Shown piece by piece: positions 1,169 through 42,915 of a stretch of DNA of 42,915 nt. A program made the position numbers and the translations under genes. This DNA is from a virus. Its lineage: Duplodnaviria; Heunggongvirae; Uroviricota; Caudoviricetes. Positions within the stretch are counted from its first letter, which is position 1, and every line of letters starts with the position of its first letter. The notes under the pieces are model-generated. The model searched no databases, had not been told where the DNA came from, and saw only the letters and a program-made list of their open reading frames with translations. The stretch is taken from the IMG/VR virus record IMGVR_UViG_2579779116_000016, positions 1 to 42,915 of that record; one strand, given 5' to 3'.

Positions 1169-1618
1169 CTATCGAATGACACAAAGCCTTGAAATCCAGT
1201 GCAAAGCTTTTGGTACCTTGGTTTTGTCTAACGTCAAAGGGCAATCATCAAACTCACCTGTACGCGCATCGTTGATGATGTAGGTGATCACGCCAAACAC
1301 TGGCCGTGATGTATCCGACCCATCGTCTTTCAGCGGTAATGGCTCTCTTCTCCCATTTTCAGGGTTTTCCAGATACGGCTGCGGATGTGTCCTGTAGCGC
1401 ATAATCCTGAACTCACCATCAATAGCGCACACCAATAGAGAACCGTCTTTCGGTGTCAGCGACGAGTCGACGATAAGCATTGCACCTTTCATGATGCCAG
1501 CGCGCAGGTATGTAGAGCCCGCTATCATCATGTACGTAGCCGCCGGATGCGCGATTAGACGCTTGTCGAGCGATATGCGCTCCTCTACGTAATCTTGTGC
1601 TGGACTCGGGAATCCCAT
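1169..1618 (-). CDS. UmuD'-like protein (S24 peptidase/LexA C-terminal fold) beginning at the position of the UmuD' N-terminus; catalytic Ser/Lys apparently substituted
   Basis: 149-aa ORF with ATG and GGAGG RBS; N-terminus GFPSPAQDYVEERI...HPAATY...LIVDS...DGEF...VFGV aligns with UmuD from its Cys24-Gly25 cleavage site onward; positions of UmuD Ser60 and Lys97 appear to be Thr and Met/Arg by eye alignment; LexA box immediately upstream. Confidence 0.6.
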   Translation of the reverse strand: MGFPSPAQDYVEERISLDKRLIAHPAATYMMIAGSTYLRAGIMKGAMLIVDSSLTPKDGSLLVCAIDGEFRIMRYRTHPQPYLENPENGRREPLPLKDDGSDTSRPVFGVITYIINDARTGEFDDCPLTLDKTKVPKALHWISRLCVIR

Positions 1619-1743: not shown

Positions 1744-2406
1744 ATGAAAATTAGCAAGGGTTTGTTGGTGGCTGTGTTATGCGTTGTTGGATTGGCGTTA
1801 ACTTTCTTTATTAGAAGGGAGTATTTATCTAGCGAGAAACAAAACAAAATAAACAACTTCCAATCAGTGATGATGGACTTCAAAGACATGAACCTTGACC
1901 AGGCTGATGGTGACTATATTGTTTTTGGTGACTCTTTGATTCAGGGGATGAGCCATTATATTCTTGGCGTTAAATACGTCAACATGGGTGTTGGTGGGTA
2001 TACAGCATCGCAAATCACACAGTTAATTACATCTTCAAGCTTAGAGAAATATAAGAAAGTGCTCATTGAAGGTGGTGTTAATGATGCTCTTAGTCAATTA
2101 ACAGCAGAGCAGATAGGAAGGAAGATGAATGAAGCAATGGACGCAGCCCATGGAAAGGAGATCGTTCTTATTCAGATTCTACCATTGCTTGAATCTGCCA
2201 GGAAAGATTTCAAGAGAGTAAATGATAAAATACGTACCATCAATGCAATAACATCAAAACATTGCAAATCTATGCCTAAATGCTCTGTTGTTGATGTTCC
2301 AGAAGACTTTTTTAATGCTCCTAATGATTTTTATATGCCTGATGGAGTTCATCTTAGAAGTTATGGTTACCATGCATGGGCAAATCACATCAAACTTGCA
2401 CTATAG
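1744..2406 (+). CDS. SGNH/GDSL-family hydrolase with N-terminal membrane anchor (cargo gene in the lysogenic-conversion slot between int and tailspike)
   Basis: 220-aa ORF, AT-rich; N-terminal hydrophobic segment LLVAVLCVVGLALTFFI; GDSL block IVFGDSLIQG about 20 residues after the anchor; AAGGAA RBS. Confidence 0.7.
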   Translation: MKISKGLLVAVLCVVGLALTFFIRREYLSSEKQNKINNFQSVMMDFKDMNLDQADGDYIVFGDSLIQGMSHYILGVKYVNMGVGGYTASQITQLITSSSLEKYKKVLIEGGVNDALSQLTAEQIGRKMNEAMDAAHGKEIVLIQILPLLESARKDFKRVNDKIRTINAITSKHCKSMPKCSVVDVPEDFFNAPNDFYMPDGVHLRSYGYHAWANHIKLAL

Positions 2407-2433: not shown

Positions 2434-4650
2434 TTATTGTATGTTTGTTATCTCTCCTGATACCATTGCTTTTATTGTCTGCCCGCCAGCTGGCTCTCCT
2501 TTGAGTACGAATCCCACCCTGCTAGTGTTTGAACCAAAAAGAAGATCTGCCCCTTTAGTTTGGTCGTAGAAAGTGTATGCATTGACGGTCCTCACCACTT
2601 GATCTGATGTTGTCACCCCAATTAATGATGTTTGACCATCCCTCTTAAGAAGTCCAGATAGTCCTGTAGATCTGCGCAAAGCGGCTGATATAGATATTGC
2701 GTAACCATCATATCCTGAAGGGGTTGATAGTTGAGCAAATCTTAGGAATTCAATACTTTGACCAGCTGCAGCAGTTGCATAGAGTCCATTGAAAATGAAT
2801 TTAGTAAATGATTGTCCACTTACGGTGGTGTCATAGCCTCTCTCGCAGGATAACGATTTAAACGCATATGTTGCATTTAGGAGTATTGTATTTTGTGATC
2901 TGGTAAGATTGTTTATCTTCATTGAAGGGAATTTCGACATATCTAGAATTCCATTTATCGATCCATTTCTGTCTGCTATGTCTATCTTTGTTTGTGTGTC
3001 TGTGTAATTGTTCTCAATGGTAAAAGATGAGAAAACACTAGGGTTGTCAATTTGATGGAATGTTTGACCAAAGTAATTACCGGAAATTGTGAGAGATTCT
3101 GGCTGGTTGTAGATGTATAGCTTGCTCTTTTCTACGTACATCCCAGTTACGCTTACGCCCTTGCAGTTTCCTATCTGTATTTCTCCGGACTCTACAGTGG
3201 AGTTGGTCAGGCTGATTCCCCATGTGTCAACGTAGACATCCTTCCCTGACTCGTGAGCATAGATAAGAGCGCTATCAAGTGTTAGCGTGTTTCCTGATAT
3301 TCCTGTTATTAACTTCGCATCAAGTCCCGCGTTTCCCTGAATCTCTATTATGTCCCACTTTAAAAAACCAGAAGCGCTTGCAACTGTTATCGAGTTGGCA
3401 CCTGCGGCAACATCTCTGGAAAGCGTCGTCTTTGGTGCATTGATGTTTATCGCTGCGGATCCAGATTGTCCGCTAGCTTGCAGGTAGCATCCCCCATGGA
3501 GTTTCACGGAGTTACCCCTCACTCTTACACCATTGAGGGTTCTTACTGAGCCGTTGATGGTTCCTGCAGTTTTCCCTGTGAACTCACCAACGATGCAGCA
3601 GATATCGACATCTGAAGATCGATGATTTACTGACTTGAAATCCCAGTGTCCATAAAACGCGTTAAGTACAACCCTGTCAGCGGCTAATGCCCCACGGGTT
3701 GAGACGCCGCCATCAATTGTAAATCCATCAACAATCTGGTCATGGTGAAGGCGGTCTCTCGATCTATCTCTTGGGTCAATGATTATATGGTGCATTGAGA
3801 TATCAGAAGATGTTGAGTTGAGGACTGTGCCGTCCTGACCAGCTCCAGACCACCTAAATCCTCTCTTGTCTACATCGAGCGTGAAACCTCCTATGCTGTA
3901 AACTCCGGCAGGGAAAGAAAGGCTCCTCATGTTTGCCTGCGCACGAGCAACACGGTTCCCCTCATCAACAGCTGCGACGTTTTCTACATCAGTGCCGCCA
4001 AACTCGAATGACGCATAGTTCATGTCAGGGAAACATACCAGATTGGCGTATTTACCTGCGGGCAACGTCAGGCTAAAAGTATTCAGATCCTGATTGGAGG
4101 AAATAACCCATTCTGATACGTTTTTTACTCCTTTCCCGTTCACGTACGTTCTGACGTGCATTCCATCTGGTACGCCACTAAAGTCTGTTTCCAGTAACTG
4201 TGTTACAGTTTCTATAGTGTAAATACGTCGAGACAAGGCGTTAGCAACGGTAGTGTCTAATGGGTCACCAACAAGAATTGATCCTGTACTCTCTCCGAGT
4301 CTTTGCTCAAGGCGATCAGGGTCATACTTCAGCACATTAGGAAAATAGAACTGCTGTGCACCATACGCATCATAAACAGCCATAGAATGGCCTTGCACAG
4401 TTACGAATTTGGCAATCTGTCCGTTATATACAGGATATCCAGCAGCGTTAATAATAATTGGTTGCGAAACAGGAACGTGAGAACCGTCTTCGTTCTCCAC
4501 ATAAACCTGAATCTGGTTTTCAGGATTTACAGGGTCAGTGTCAATTTTTCCGATATAAATTTTACCATTGGCTACGGCTTTAAAAGAACGCGCCATAGTG
4601 AAGAGTTGCGAAGGCATCGATACGATCACATTGGCTGTAATGTCTGTCAT
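2434..4650 (-). CDS. Tailspike protein: P22-type N-terminal head-binding domain fused to a distinct receptor-binding beta-helix domain
   Basis: 738-aa ORF; first ~110 residues ([11 protein letters not shown]...[33 protein letters not shown]...[12 protein letters not shown]...VLKYDPD) closely resemble the P22 gp9 head-binding domain; remainder is Gly/Ser/Asn-rich repeat typical of beta-helix tailspikes. Confidence 0.9.
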
Positions 4651-6660: not shown

Positions 6661-7026
6661 TCACTCCGGCTTTTTGATATGTCGCTCGCAGAACTCAACA
6701 AGCCTGCTCATTAAGTAGCAGTAAGTCTCGTTGGCTCTTCCTGGTTCAACATCAACACCTACCCTTGAGCAGATATCGAATGCCATGTGAGCGCACTCAT
6801 GGGCAATAGTAGATAGTTTGCCATTGAACACGCCTATCACATGCAAAACACCATTCTCGCTACTCATTGTATGAGACGCTCCGTTGGCGTCCGAGTCATG
6901 CACGTCAACGCCAAGTTTTTGATGCAGGCGTTGCCATTCTGGAAAGTCTCTACAAAACACAATTGTACCGCTCTCAAAGAGCGGTACGAGCATCTTTGGT
7001 ACGTTTCCAATGTTAACTTTTTTCAT
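6661..7026 (-). CDS. Small HExxH zinc-metallopeptidase-like protein (ImmA/IrrE, DUF955-like motif)
   Basis: 121-aa ORF with ATG; motif KLSTIAHECAHMAFD resembles the (F)T(I/L)AHE(L/C)(G/A)H signature of ImmA/IrrE peptidases, with Glu residues 14 and 20 positions after the second His. Confidence 0.5.
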   Translation of the reverse strand: MKKVNIGNVPKMLVPLFESGTIVFCRDFPEWQRLHQKLGVDVHDSDANGASHTMSSENGVLHVIGVFNGKLSTIAHECAHMAFDICSRVGVDVEPGRANETYCYLMSRLVEFCERHIKKPE

Positions 7027-7060
7027 GGTATCCTGCGCAAAACTAAGGAGAGTTAATTAT

Positions 7061-7546
7061 ATGAAAAAATCACTGTTAATTATCCCGCTTCTGCTGGCTG
7101 GGTGCGCAAAAGTAAGCGACTATCAGGCAAGTTGCGAGCAACGCTATCCAAAGCTTAGCGATATGGCTAATTGCCTTGATGCCAGCTTGAAGAACGACTC
7201 TCGCATGGCATCAGCACCAACACCTAAGCTGTATGTCCTTGCTGCGAAGATGCTCGGGCAAGGTGTCGATGAAGGCAAGATAAGTGACACACAGGCAAGA
7301 CTTGAACTTCAGAATCTTTATGTTCAATTACAAAGCCAAGAACAAGCACAACAAATAGCACAAAGCCAAGCATTCCAGCAGGCTTTATTGAATTATCAGG
7401 CTGTAAACACAATGCAAGCGATCGAGCAAAAAGCGCGCCAGCCTGTTATAACTCAACCTTACCCAACACGCGTTGACACATATACAAACTGCAATTCAGG
7501 ATTTGGAAACACGGTAACATGCAACAGTAGCAGTAATATCAGATAG
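7061..7546 (+). CDS. Lipoprotein with Gln-rich coiled-coil region (cargo in the sieA slot); candidate superinfection-exclusion factor
   Basis: ATG at 7061 with AAGGAG RBS; signal peptide and lipobox MKKSLLIIPLLLAGC; Q-rich segment QLQSQEQAQQIAQSQAFQQALLNYQ; C-terminal Cys/Asn/Ser-rich tail. Confidence 0.65.
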   Translation: MKKSLLIIPLLLAGCAKVSDYQASCEQRYPKLSDMANCLDASLKNDSRMASAPTPKLYVLAAKMLGQGVDEGKISDTQARLELQNLYVQLQSQEQAQQIAQSQAFQQALLNYQAVNTMQAIEQKARQPVITQPYPTRVDTYTNCNSGFGNTVTCNSSSNIR

Positions 7547-7559
7547 TTATATCTTATTT

Positions 7560-9407
7560 TTATTGCTGTTCTGCTGTAATTTGGCTTGAAAGTATAGGGC
7601 GTATCGCATTTGCAGCATTATTTAGCGCTCTTTCATAGGCTGGTGTTCCTGCTTTGGTGTTTGCCAAACGTAAGAGAGCATTCCTTGCTGCTTTTGACTC
7701 ATACAAGCGCATCATTGCACCGAAACCAGCCTCAAGCCCCATTGATACGCCAAGAGTCGCAGTTGCGCCAATCGTCCTTATCCTGTTGGCTTGCGATTGC
7801 CCCGTCTGTGTTACCACATTTGCGGTGTCTGACCTTGCTGTTTGCTGTAGAACTTCATGAAGAGCATCAAGCTCTTTCATGTGCTTTCCAGAAAAAATAG
7901 TGTTGTAAATTTCACCGCCTGACTGAGATTTCAGCTTATTAACTTCAGTGATGAACTTGGCTGGAGAGTCACCGGACTTTTCCGCTATTTTGCTGACGTA
8001 AGCCGCACGCATAGCATCTTTTCCTTTATCATCCAATGCGCTCCAGATTCGTTTCACGTCAGATGGTTTTCTGCTTAATACAACGGCATTTATAAGTTCA
8101 GGACTGGCTTCACTACTTGCCTTATTGAGCTTGTTAGCAATGTTTTTATTAAGCACCTTATTATAAACGTTTGCATAATCGGAATTTGCTTTAAGGTATT
8201 TTGCTGCGTCTGAAGCCCCGAGGTTTTTAGCAACTGCGTTACGAAGGTCTTTTGACATTGCATTCTCTACCATATTGGTAGCTGCTTTTGCCTGGTTAGG
8301 GAAGACCATAGCATCTCCCTGAACATTAGATCTAAATGCCGTTCTGTGCTGACGCAGGAGATCAAACGTAACATCCAAATCAGTTGCAGGGTTTGCTAAT
8401 TCTTCACGTAGGTTACGCAAGGATGTAAGCAGGCTTTGATTGGCTGAAGTACCAAGCCGTTCCTGTCTTGCGATCGCTGTATTCAGAGCATTCATGGTAT
8501 TTGTAGTATCAACTGCGGCATTACCCATTTTATTGGTGACGTCATTGATAACAGCGCCAGCAGCATCCTTCCGCCCCCTTAACGTGGTGGTCAGAGATTT
8601 CACCACATCATCAGGGTTGTACTCACCAAAACGGTCAAAATAATTACTTACCAGCTTACTACGCGTTGCATATTGCTCAGCTCGCTTTGAGCCTGTCCCG
8701 AGCAAAGCCCCCTCGGCATCCTGAGTAATGCCACGAGTGAAAGCATTTTTCGGCGTGATAACATCAGATGTCATTGGTGTCACGCCCATCGATTCTGATG
8801 TGGCAATTTTCTTCGCCACTTCTGGCGCAATATCACCTTTTATAGCCGTTATTCCACGCCCTATTCCCTTTGCTGCTGCGGAAAGAACACCCTGAGCGGC
8901 AAGGTTAACTCCGGCATTTTTAGCTGCATTTTGTGCGAAATCGCCTTTCTGATTTGCGGCCTCTGCCAGTGATCCAATAGCCATGCTTCCTGCCGTTCCA
9001 ACGCCTGGAACTAAATACCCGCCAATTGTTTCTCCAACTTGAGCGTAGGGGTCTGTCGGTCTGTCTACTGGACGATAAACATCATCCAAAACTTTTGGCC
9101 CACCAAGCCCCTGACTGATTGCATTAATCAGACTTGCGCCACCCTGCAATACGTCAAATGGTATGTTTACCAGACCACGACCAGCCTGTTCTGCAATTTG
9201 CCCTGCACTTTGACCACCAGTGAGCCAATCGCCAGCTTGTTGCATCAATGATGGGTCTTCCCGTGTTGGTGCATTATTGGCCTGATTAACTGTTTGTTGC
9301 TGAACAGCCTGACCAGCAAAATACTCATCAATGGCGGTGCCAATATCTTCGGTGCTCGTACCATCAGGAAAGGTAAATGTCTTACCGTTTGCAGTTACTT
9401 TCATCAT
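7560..9407 (-). CDS. Ejection (internal virion) protein, P22 gp16 equivalent
   Basis: 615-aa ORF, Ala/Gly/Gln-rich; size and position immediately after the gp20 equivalent match P22 gene 16. Confidence 0.85.
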
Positions 9408-11514: not shown

Positions 11515-11970
11515 CTATCTCCCGTGATTCAGGAAGTCGATTAGTTCTTCGCGTGTTGCGCTGTAAAACGTCACGTCATCCACGCCTTTGAAGTATTTCT
11601 TGATGGTTCCTACACGATTAAGGCCAATCATTGCGCAGTACATCTGACCGTGGCGGAATTTGCGTGCAGCGAACGATGTGACGCACTGAACGGTGGTGTT
11701 AGTCAGAATGTATCGCCAGAACGCCAGCCCGATTTCCTTGCTGAATCCACGAACCTCTGGCAGGTACATGGCGTGGCAATCGAAGGTCAGCGGCTGAATC
11801 TCCTGATAGTAAACAATGCCGCCAAACTGCCCGTGCACGTTCACCTCAAAGTAACGGCATTCAGGTTTGTAGTCGTATCCATCACCGTTGTTGCTACCAG
11901 CGATAATGTCAGGGTGATTTCCGACTGCTTCGATCAGGTCGATGTTTCGCGTTGGTTTGAACTGAATCAT
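11515..11970 (-). CDS. Head/tail-associated protein, P22 gp14 equivalent
   Basis: About 151 aa; ATG at 11970 (track ORF begins at GTG 11973); position between tail needle and gp7 equivalents. Confidence 0.65.
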   Translation of the reverse strand: MIQFKPTRNIDLIEAVGNHPDIIAGSNNGDGYDYKPECRYFEVNVHGQFGGIVYYQEIQPLTFDCHAMYLPEVRGFSKEIGLAFWRYILTNTTVQCVTSFAARKFRHGQMYCAMIGLNRVGTIKKYFKGVDDVTFYSATREELIDFLNHGR

Positions 11971-12818
11971 CACTGCTCCGCGATTATCTTGATGGTTGTG
12001 GCAGTAAACGCCGCACCATTTGACTGAATGGTTAACGTGCTGCCATTTGTGGCAAGAAAGCCGTCTTTATCCACGCTGAAGAACGTAGCTAACAGGATGT
12101 TATCGGTTGTTGTCGCCGCATTACGACTGCTCACAAGTGTGTCAGGAACAGAGCCGGAAAAGGTTAGTTGCATTGATCTGTTGGCGGTTCCGCTGGGCCA
12201 CGTCCCGACAATCGACAGCTTGAAGAACAAGGTTTTGTTCTCGTTGAACACAACCATCTTGTTGTTAACGGTGTCGAAGAATGGTGCCAACGAGCCGGAT
12301 GACGGCGTGAGCGTTTTCAGCAGGCTAACAAGGTTAGTCGGCGCTGTCGGGATGGTTACAGATACGCCAGAGTAAACAACCTCTGACTTCTTGCGAGTAG
12401 TGGCATACTCAAGAGCATCGATGCGCGTTTCATGGTCTGAAAGCGTGTTTTGAATGGCGGCAACTTCATCCGTCAGGTAATCAATATCGTTTTCTGCTGT
12501 CGTTAATCGTGAATCAAGGCCGACTATCGCCGCTTCTGCGTTAGTGATCCTTGTTTCGTGGTCCTGTATCTTCGCTTCAGCCGATGCCAGTCGAATTTCG
12601 TGATCGACCAGAATCACATCCTGCTCATCGTTCCTGACTTGTGCGTCATAAGCGCCCTGCCCGGCTTCGTTGGCCTTGTTCGCCACGTTACCAACATCAG
12701 TACCCTGTGCGATAACGTACAACAGATATGACTGCGAGAAGATATTGCGTGGAAGGACTGATGTATCGAGCCGCGTAGCCTGCACAATAACAGGGGTATT
12801 GAGATTCGAATCCGCCAT
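11970..12818 (-). CDS. Tail needle (P22 gp26-like N-terminus) with extended C-terminal domain
   Basis: 282 aa; N-terminus [43 protein letters not shown]...[18 protein letters not shown] matches P22 gp26; heptad-rich middle; C-terminal ~100 aa extra relative to my recollection of P22 gp26 (Sf6-type knob). Confidence 0.85.
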
Positions 12819-14236
12819 TACTCAATCCTTATCTGGCAGCCAGACAAAGTGACAGGTGACTTCGTGATAACGCGCAATTTGAAGCCAATGTTTTTCCTGA
12901 TGCGCCCTACTTTCTTCCACAAAACGCGTTTGTCGTAAACGAACGGTTCATTCTGCTCAATCATCTGCTCACGACCGTAATTGATGCCGTCAGTGGTTGC
13001 AGAGAGGAACAGGCGGTCGGCGTACTGAGCTACGCCAGTGGATGATTCCACCTCCAGATCGAAGCATCTGGCGTTATCCGCTTTGAACAGTGGAGTAAAC
13101 AACAGGTGTTCCTGTTGAAGCCCATACTGGCTGCTGATATCGAACTGCAATTTGCCGGTAACCGATTCCAGCTTATCGCCGCACGTTATCTGATTGCCTT
13201 CGTAAATGAAGTCGATAGCGCGGTACACATCGTCATACAAGCCAGTTTTCAACACACACCATTGCGGACCATTGGCGCTTGAAGATGCGTCGTACACGAG
13301 GACGTGACGCGGAAGATGGATAATCAGCAATTCATGAGCATCAAACCGCAGCGATTCCATCACACCATCAGCCAGTTCATCAGCAGTGTAGGAGCGGAGG
13401 ATTTTCTCAATGCTCGCGCTGGCGATTGGTGACACCTGACCGGAGCCGATGATATACACAGACGGCGCACCCGTTGCCGGATTGCTGATGAACGCATGCG
13501 AATCAGCAAACGGCGTTTTGCAGTAAGTCCCGGCGATGCCTTTTTGCACCATCAGTGATGGCTGTGCGACATACAAAGCAGCACCAACGGTGGTTGCGCC
13601 AGTCAGGGAGAAATATTCAATAGTCGATGAACCAAAGCAGACGATGAAGTCTCGCCATGTCCCGATACCGATGATGCCGTCCGGCTGAGACTCGGCACGA
13701 TATTGTGCGCTGTAACGGTCAGGATGCGATTCGTCTTCAAGGTCAGTGATAAACCATGAATCAGTGCCGTCTTTTGACCACGCATAACGCCCACGTAAGC
13801 GCGTAATGTCGCGAACTGAACCTAACTCATACTGAGTGAATCCACTGTCTGTAGGCCAGTTTGAGACGGTTTTAACCGTGCCATCATAGCGATACTCGAC
13901 CAGTTGACCATTAACGCCTACCGCCTGTGATGTCCGACCATGCGCCATTGATACACGACCACTTCCGGCAACGTCACCGACTTCACTTTCTCCTTTGTAC
14001 AGCTTGCCACCACACACACGATAAACAGCACTCTGCGCCATGTTGTACTCGACGCCGCGAGATACACCGTTCACATCAGAGCGTTTGGCAATGCCCGGGA
14101 ATGAGCGAATATATCCGCTGCTGTTGAGTATTTCTTTGGGCGTAGCCAGCATATTCACTGGCAGATAGTCGATATAATCGGCGTTTCGGAAGTCTTTGCC
14201 GACACCTTTCATAAGCGGAAGTTGCTGAATCGGCAT
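12818..14236 (-). CDS. Tail accessory / head-completion protein, P22 gp10 equivalent
   Basis: 472-aa ORF; size and synteny (between gp4 and gp26 equivalents). Confidence 0.85.
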
Positions 14237-41667: not shown

Positions 41668-42915
41668 CTATATTGCTGAAGGTACAGGCGTTTCCATAAC
41701 TATTTGCTCGCGTTTTTTACTCAAGAAGAAAATGCCAAATAGCAACATCAGGCAGACAATACCCGAAATTGCGAAGAAAACTGTCTGGTAGCCTGCGTGG
41801 TCAAAGAGTATCCCAGTCGGCGTTGAAAGCAGCACAATCCCAAGCGAACTGGCAATTTGAAAACCAATCAGAAAGATCGTCGACGACAGGCGCTTATCAA
41901 AGTTTGCCACGCTGTATTTGAAGACGGATATGACACAAAGTGGAACCTCAATGGCATGTAACAACTTCACTAATGAAATAATCCAGGGGTTAACGAACAG
42001 CGCGCAGGAAAGGATACGCAACGCCATAATCACAACTCCGATAAGTAATGCATTTTTTGGCCCTACCCGATTCACAAAGAAAGGAATAATCGCCATGCAC
42101 AGCGCTTCGAGTACCACCTGGAATGAGTTGAGATAACCATACAGGCGCGTTCCTACATCGTGTGATTCGAATAAACCTGCATAAAAGACAGGAAAAAGTT
42201 GTTGATCAAAAATGTTATAGAAAGACCACGTCCCCACAATAAATATGACGAAAACCCAGAAGTTTCGATCCTTGAAAACTGCGATAAAATCCTCTTTTTT
42301 TACCCCTCCCGCATCTGCCGCTACGCACTGGTGATCCTTATCTTTAAAACGCATGTTGATCATCATAAATACAGCGCCAAATAGCGAGACCAACCAGAAG
42401 TTGATATGGGGACTGATACTAAAAAATATGCCGGCAAAGAACGCGCCAATAGCATAGCCAAAAGATCCCCAGGCGCGCGCTGTTCCATATTCGAAATGAA
42501 AATTTCGCGCCATTTTTTCGGTGAAGCTATCAAGCAAACCGCATCCCGCCAGATACCCCAAGCCAAAAAATAGCGCCCCCAGAATTAGACCTACAGAAAA
42601 ATTGCTTTGCAGTAACGGTTCATAAACGTAAATCATAAACGGTCCGGTCAAGACCAGGATGAAACTCATACACCAGATGAGCGGTTTCTTCAGACCGAGT
42701 TTATCCTGAACGATGCCGTAGAACATCATAAATAGAATGCTGGTAAACTGGTTGACCGAATAAAGTGTACCTAATTCCGTCCCTGTCAACCCTAGATGTC
42801 CTTTCAGCCAAATAGCGTATAACGACCACCACAGCGACCAGGAAATAAAAAAGAGAAATGAGTAACTGGATGCAAAACGATAGTACGCATTTCTGAATGG
42901 AATATTCAGTGCCAT
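41668..42915 (-). CDS. cscB: LacY-family sugar:H+ symporter, sucrose permease CscB-like (host gene flanking the prophage)
   Basis: 415-aa 12-TM ORF; translation matches my recollection of E. coli CscB; start codon at the last base of the window. Confidence 0.85.
   Translation of the reverse strand: MALNIPFRNAYYRFASSYSFLFFISWSLWWSLYAIWLKGHLGLTGTELGTLYSVNQFTSILFMMFYGIVQDKLGLKKPLIWCMSFILVLTGPFMIYVYEPLLQSNFSVGLILGALFFGLGYLAGCGLLDSFTEKMARNFHFEYGTARAWGSFGYAIGAFFAGIFFSISPHINFWLVSLFGAVFMMINMRFKDKDHQCVAADAGGVKKEDFIAVFKDRNFWVFVIFIVGTWSFYNIFDQQLFPVFYAGLFESHDVGTRLYGYLNSFQVVLEALCMAIIPFFVNRVGPKNALLIGVVIMALRILSCALFVNPWIISLVKLLHAIEVPLCVISVFKYSVANFDKRLSSTIFLIGFQIASSLGIVLLSTPTGILFDHAGYQTVFFAISGIVCLMLLFGIFFLSKKREQIVMETPVPSAI

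Follow-up and report, generated by a model that had tools for sequence, protein, structure and literature searches.

The open reading frame on the minus strand at 11970..12818 is almost certainly the gene for a knobbed tail needle of the Sf6/HS1 type, carried by a P22-like Escherichia coli prophage, and its product would work in the way described for its homologues, as a plug of the tail channel with an influence on the kinetics of DNA delivery. The assignment is based on sequence identity, on the ligand-contact residues, on the regularity of the heptads and on the gene context in the window, by which we mean the whole stretch of 42,915 nucleotides that was analyzed (IMG/VR record IMGVR_UViG_2579779116_000016). 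Trimerization, the plug function, release of the needle and a kinetic role would follow by analogy with published work on Sf6, HS1 and P22. The needle gene, its parts and its two neighbors are as follows.

12818..14236, minus strand: gp10 (tail hub) homologue, 472 aa, upstream of the needle gene (ORF list and sequence)
11970..12818, minus strand: complete tail needle gene, 282 codons and TGA (PDB, Pfam and PHROG matches)
12603..12818, minus strand: N-terminal domain, aa 1-72 (identity to Sf6 gp9, HK620 gp26 and P22 gp26)
12402..12602, minus strand: predicted trimeric coiled-coil shaft, about aa 73-139 (heptad layout)
12444..12609, minus strand: mosaic shaft cassette, gene nt 210-375, aa 71-125 (drop in DNA identity to Sf6)
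11973..12401, minus strand: C-terminal knob, aa 140-282 (near-identity to 3RWN and 4K6B; PF16532)
11515..11970, minus strand: gp14 homologue (DUF2824), downstream of the needle gene (PF11039, E 1e-52)

In the ORF list, the minus-strand ORF, whose strand the initial annotation had not given, occupies exactly 11970..12818 and encodes 282 aa between an ATG start and a TGA stop; a plus-strand reading of the same interval was ruled out, as its translation is riddled with stops. The TAA stop of the gp10 homologue overlaps the needle ATG (TAATG), and the needle TGA in turn overlaps the probable ATG of the gp14 homologue (TGATG). Genes 8, 9 and 10 of Sf6 have the same overlapping stop/start layout, with an overlap of 1 nt between genes 9 and 10. 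The gp10 homologue equals Sf6 gene 8, P22 gene 10 and the CUS-3 homologue in both length and position, and the placement of the needle between the gp10 and gp14 homologues reproduces the gene order of Sf6, P22, HK620 and CUS-3. The ORF is homologous to gene 9 of Sf6 and gene 26 of P22.

Database records agree with this assignment. NCBI and UniRef both list an identical protein (0 substitutions), WP_032192593.1, under the name "tail needle knob protein [Escherichia coli]". Pfam family PF16532 (Phage_tail_NK, "Sf6-type phage tail needle knob") was matched at 360.7 bits against a cut-off of 27 (E 1.4e-108), the remaining Pfam matches being sub-threshold coiled-coil noise, and PHROG 1030, "tail needle knob", spans aa 1-282 (E 2e-133). 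A scan of the needle protein against NCBIfam returned no family at E <= 1e-5, but this does not count as evidence against the needle identity because no HMM of that library reaches the threshold. Of 5426 complete E. coli genomes, 896 show some match to the gene, and 315 have a copy, under the same annotation, that spans 80% or more of it. The needle is, then, already known: its exact sequence has been named, its knob has been crystallized at 98% identity, and publications describe the family along with its distribution and mosaicism. The value of the present analysis lies mostly in the correct annotation of what is a textbook Sf6-type knobbed needle.

The N-terminal domain is shared with the needles of Sf6, HK620, P22 and CUS-3. 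In a six-sequence alignment, aa 1-72 are 96% identical to Sf6 gp9, 92% (66/72) to HK620 gp26 and 79% (57/72) to P22 gp26, in agreement with the initial annotation, which had likened the first 60 or so residues to P22 gp26. Residues 3-64 match the chain in PDB entry 8EAP that represents the N-terminus of gp26 (62 residues; E 1e-27), and a phmmer search of all PDB chains aligned aa 1 to about 144 with the P22, HK620 and Sf6 needle chains 4LIN, 5BU5, 2POH and 3C9I (E 1e-45 to 7e-50). By homology, aa 1-72 would be inserted as a plug into the gp10 tail hub and thereby seal the portal channel, as the base of the needle is known to plug the channel (PMC3741392, PMC9728967).

Toward the C-terminus the relationship to the P22-type needles ends. 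P22 gp26, HK620 gp26 and the CUS-3 needle (2POH, 3C9I, 5BU5) have the homologous plug (79-92% over aa 1-72), a trimeric coiled-coil shaft and the same gene position, but they are 233 aa long and carry a tip that is unrelated in sequence to the knob described here; the fold of the P22-type tip likewise differs from that of the knob (Leavitt et al., 2013; PMC3741392). With 282 aa against 233, the present needle exceeds P22 gp26 by 49 residues, close to the 50 or so estimated earlier. Over aa 131-282 its identity to P22 gp26 is 15% (15-19% when the needles of P22, HK620 and CUS-3 are all forced into the alignment), the phmmer matches to chains of the P22 type end at aa 137-153, and neither alignment nor phmmer found a P22-type tip (homologous to P22 gp26 aa 141-233) at the needle C-terminus. 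An ordinary gp26 of the P22 type, colinear with it from end to end and lacking any extra domain, would account for the shared N-terminus and coiled coil and for nothing more; the difference in length, the low identity over aa 131-282 and the matches to PF16532, 3RWN and 4K6B rule out full colinearity and leave that reading with practically no probability. The C-terminal region that the initial annotation had called distinct from P22 is indeed so. Its further proposal of an Sf6-type needle with a knob also held: full colinearity with P22 gp26 is lacking, whereas the alignment with Sf6 gp9 (AAQ12199.1), 282 aa against 282, is free of gaps.

The knob itself is nearly identical to two crystallized domains. 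Residues 131-282 are identical at 149 of 152 positions (about 98%) to the Sf6 gene 9 knob construct 3RWN (E 1.2e-89), and again at 149 of 152 to the HS1 knob 4K6B (E 3.5e-89); the former was crystallized by Bhardwaj et al. (2011) and the latter by Leavitt et al. (2013). With E-values this small, neither these matches nor those to PF16532 and to the needle chains at the N-terminus can be put down to chance. When aa 140-282 are compared with Sf6 gp9, three of the 143 residues differ (S176T, A234S and A270S), a difference of 2.1% that falls within the maximum divergence of 4.9% published for knobs across P22-like phages (PMC3741392). The residues that contact L-glutamate (E146, K200, S248, D250, L255 and K277) are all kept at their Sf6 positions, as is the phosphate-binding triad S231-R232-N233; both lists of residues were taken, in Sf6 numbering, from the same study (PMC3741392). 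From its near-identity to the crystal structures, the knob is predicted to fold as a TNF-like jellyroll. The Sf6 and HS1 knobs are TNF-like jellyroll trimers with three bound L-glutamates (PMC3741392), and cryo-EM of the Sf6 virion places the knob at the tip of the needle (PMC9728967). In composition, Gly, Thr, Ser and Asn together make up 40% of aa 141-282 compared with 24% of aa 1-140. Thr (15.5%) and Ser (12%) are enriched there and Gly (5.6%) and Asn (7%) are unremarkable, so that the earlier description of the C-terminus as rich in all four holds for the first two and not for the others.

Between the plug and the knob lies a shaft of 11 heptads without a stutter, with an aliphatic residue at every fourth position over aa 67-136. 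The published heptad counts are 11 for Sf6 and P22 and 16 for HS1 (PMC3741392). Here the resemblance to Sf6 breaks down: DNA identity between the two needle genes is 90.9% over nt 1-209, falls to 47.6% over nt 210-375 and returns to 95.4% over nt 376-849, and at the protein level aa 73-130 are 38% identical to Sf6 gp9 and 36% to P22 gp26. Both breakpoints of this cassette lie at or beside conserved stretches coding for the motif DHExR[IL], and these repeats may serve as recombination points. The motif occurs three times in this needle and four times in Sf6.

The cassette was ruled out as a novel allele. The same allele, at 95-99% identity, is present in 57-60 of the 5426 complete E. coli genomes (about 1%), and it was also found in one partial phage record, ECO26.1 3-1. 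Among the matches listed in the E. coli genomes, wherever the cassette is full length the surrounding gene carries the annotation "tail needle knob protein"; a single incomplete match, to 54% of the cassette, is in a gene labelled "packaged DNA stabilization protein". Cassette exchange is one way in which needle shafts differ, length being another: in the phage records Gally and vB_EcoP-720R6 the needle gene spans 954 nt (about 317 aa), which is the length of the HS1 needle.

Of the needles compared, that of Sf6 and that of an E. coli prophage stand closest to the present one, in different respects. Sf6 gp9 resembles it in the N-terminal domain (96%), the knob (98%), the count of 11 heptads, the ligand residues and the gene position, but differs in the shaft cassette and in its host, which is Shigella flexneri rather than E. 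coli. WP_257191577.1, from a prophage of E. coli E21845/O/A, is identical at 278 of 282 residues, cassette included, and lies in the same neighborhood; the four differences are T8V, V12I, A120V and T263A, and DNA identity is 96% over the whole gene. Over the shaft cassette, DNA identity to an E. coli prophage copy is 98.8%. The needle of HS1, another E. coli prophage, has the same type of knob on a longer shaft (317 aa and 16 heptads, as against 282 aa and 11 heptads here). More distant homologues of the knob, 34-48% identical over about aa 130-268, occur in large virulent phages of Escherichia, Salmonella, Citrobacter, Dickeya and Aeromonas (e.g., EP75, bering and Aeromonas phage 31), and some coliphages of 42-45 kb also share a knob of the PF16532 type. 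Unlike the present needle, these homologues from phages that are not P22-like have no N-terminal plug domain of the gp26 type and place the knob in another protein context. The glutamate-contact residues are reported to be kept in knob homologues outside the P22-like phages (PMC3741392).

Taken together with the published work, these likenesses suggest how the needle would operate. By homology, it would be a homotrimeric fibre in which the N-terminal domain (some 60-70 residues) plugs the channel of the gp10 hub so that the packaged DNA stays inside the head, the coiled-coil shaft of 11 heptads juts out past the tailspikes, and the knob (about 143 residues), a TNF-like jellyroll, binds three L-glutamates at the subunit interfaces. 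During infection the needle would touch the outer membrane and then be released; its release would open the channel for the DNA and for the ejection proteins, homologues of gp7, gp20 and gp16 that are encoded just downstream, and the ejection proteins would form the conduit for the DNA. In P22, cryo-ET work cited in PMC9400499 has the needle meeting the cell surface early in adsorption.

As for the knob, its most likely part is to adjust how fast the DNA is delivered and not to choose the host, with specificity residing in the tailspike. Changes to the tip slow the release of K+, a measure of DNA-delivery kinetics; this was observed for P22 with hybrid needles on Salmonella, rather than for a phage of E. 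coli (PMC3741392). The initial annotation had instead suggested that the C-terminal domain may influence host range, and in its strongest form this would make the knob a host-specific receptor-binding domain for a component of the Escherichia/Shigella envelope, such as an outer-membrane protein, that helps to set the host range. Several observations are consistent with such a role. Among P22-like phages, knob tips are found only in those of Escherichia and Shigella and in 0 of 48 P22-like phages of Salmonella (PMC3741392), the P22 needle meets the cell surface early in adsorption (cryo-ET cited in PMC9400499), the TNF-like fold is reminiscent of the knobs with which adenovirus and PRD1 bind their receptors (PMC3741392), and the authors of that study allow for a function of the knob that is peculiar to Shigella or E. 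coli (PMC3741392).

However, domain-swap infection assays, which the initial annotation had named as a check, are already published and point the other way. P22 carrying Sf6 codons 69-282 or the HS1 knob showed normal titre, plaques and infectivity on Salmonella; a needle tipped with a foldon still worked, although infectivity was about eightfold lower (0.13); and single and double mutants at the glutamate site were functional and had no phenotype (all PMC3741392). In Sf6 isolates selected by host-range expansion, the mutations lay only in the tailspike, in 34 of 34 cases (PMC9400499). Moreover, the knobs are near-invariant (at most 4.9%, and here 2% from Sf6), unlike a domain that tracks variable receptors. 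Leavitt et al. (2013) considered a role in host specificity unlikely and their data supported one in delivery kinetics (PMC3741392). We therefore regard a receptor-binding knob that helps set host range as unlikely; what speaks for the earlier suggestion is the confinement of the knob, within the P22-like group, to phages of Escherichia and Shigella, and what speaks against it are the domain swaps and the tailspike-only mutants.

Two further possibilities go beyond the kinetic role of the knob favored here. The exchangeable cassette at aa 71-125 could be a functional allele that tunes the stiffness or the release of the needle, and not neutral mosaicism; or the knob, perhaps via its bound L-glutamate, could act as a trigger or secondary-receptor contact specific to Escherichia and Shigella, a role that the published hybrids of P22 on Salmonella would not reveal. 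Even counted jointly, these two are improbable, and neither is prompted by anything odd in the present sequence. The role of the knob and of its glutamate in native infection of E. coli and Shigella is a question for the whole family, and one that this copy does not sharpen.

The needle gene lies within an E. coli prophage of the P22-like kind (Lederbergvirus). The first 25 kb of the window are closest to CUS-3, with 61% covered at 95% identity. On the minus strand the genes run in the order terminase, portal, scaffold, coat, gp4, gp10, needle, gp14 (DUF2824), gp7, gp20 (Inj_translocase) and gp16, followed past gp16 by an antirepressor region and then by a tailspike with a P22 head-binding domain. 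For the terminase large subunit, portal, scaffold, coat, gp4 and gp10 the length is exactly that of the CUS-3 counterpart, whereas gp20 and gp16 differ in length. CUS-3 has a 233-aa needle of the P22 type and this CUS-3-like prophage a knobbed one; because the CUS-3 needle is P22-type, the needle tip is a module that differs between the two, and its presence here illustrates the known shuffling of modules among P22-like phages. The other features of note in the window are listed below.

1169-1618, minus strand: UmuD-like accessory gene, 149 aa, adjoining the integrase
1744-2406, plus strand: GDSL/SGNH-family hydrolase, 220 aa, between integrase and tailspike (PF13472, E 3e-15)
2434-4650, minus strand: tailspike, 738 aa, of which the N-terminal 118 or so are the P22 head-binding domain (PF09008)
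7010-7546, plus strand: 178-aa ORF, adjoining the gp16-position gene
7560-9407, minus strand: ejection protein at the gp16 position, 615 aa (about 719 aa in CUS-3, from a 2160-nt gene)
41668-42915, minus strand: LacY-family oligosaccharide/H+ symporter, 415 aa (PF01306, E 1e-193; TIGR00882)

The prophage is apparently intact, and this bears on whether the needle gene is functional at all. The gene could be a dead remnant in a defective prophage that makes no functional needle: in more than 100 E. coli genomes, what is left of a P22-like phage is a short stretch of a few genes, an Sf6-type needle gene among them (PMC3741392), and the gap between the 896 genomes with some match and the 315 in which most of the gene is covered would fit with such decay. 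Against this, the needle ORF runs its full length without a frameshift, in colinearity with Sf6 gp9, and the late operon is complete, with intact ORFs for the terminase, portal, scaffold, coat, gp4, gp10, gp14, gp7, gp20, gp16 and tailspike. An integrase, which opens the window, an antirepressor and ORFs of the size of lysis genes are present as well. A dead remnant is for these reasons very unlikely, and the gene most probably encodes a functional knobbed needle.

The tailspike is also where the determinant of host range likely lies, namely in its receptor-binding body and not in the needle. That body (about aa 120-738) had no sequence-level match in PDB, Pfam or NCBIfam. Next to the tailspike gene, the hydrolase at 1744-2406 occupies the place where CUS-3 has neuO; in Sf6 this place is taken by its O-antigen acetylase. 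The hydrolase may be a moron that modifies surface polysaccharide or acts as an esterase. Neither the gp16-position protein (7560-9407) nor the 178-aa ORF beside it (7010-7546) matched a family in Pfam or NCBIfam.

At the right end of the window, the LacY-family permease (41668-42915) is presumably part of the host chromosome, and the junction between prophage and host is therefore expected at about 40.8-41.7 kb; a search for a tRNA gene as the integration site found none in the window. In size and family, the permease would fit a sucrose permease of the CscB type. At the opposite end, the UmuD-like protein encoded at 1169-1618 matched the NCBIfam equivalog "HumD family translesion DNA polymerase" at 212 bits against a cut-off of 120 (E 2e-63) and also matched Peptidase_S24.
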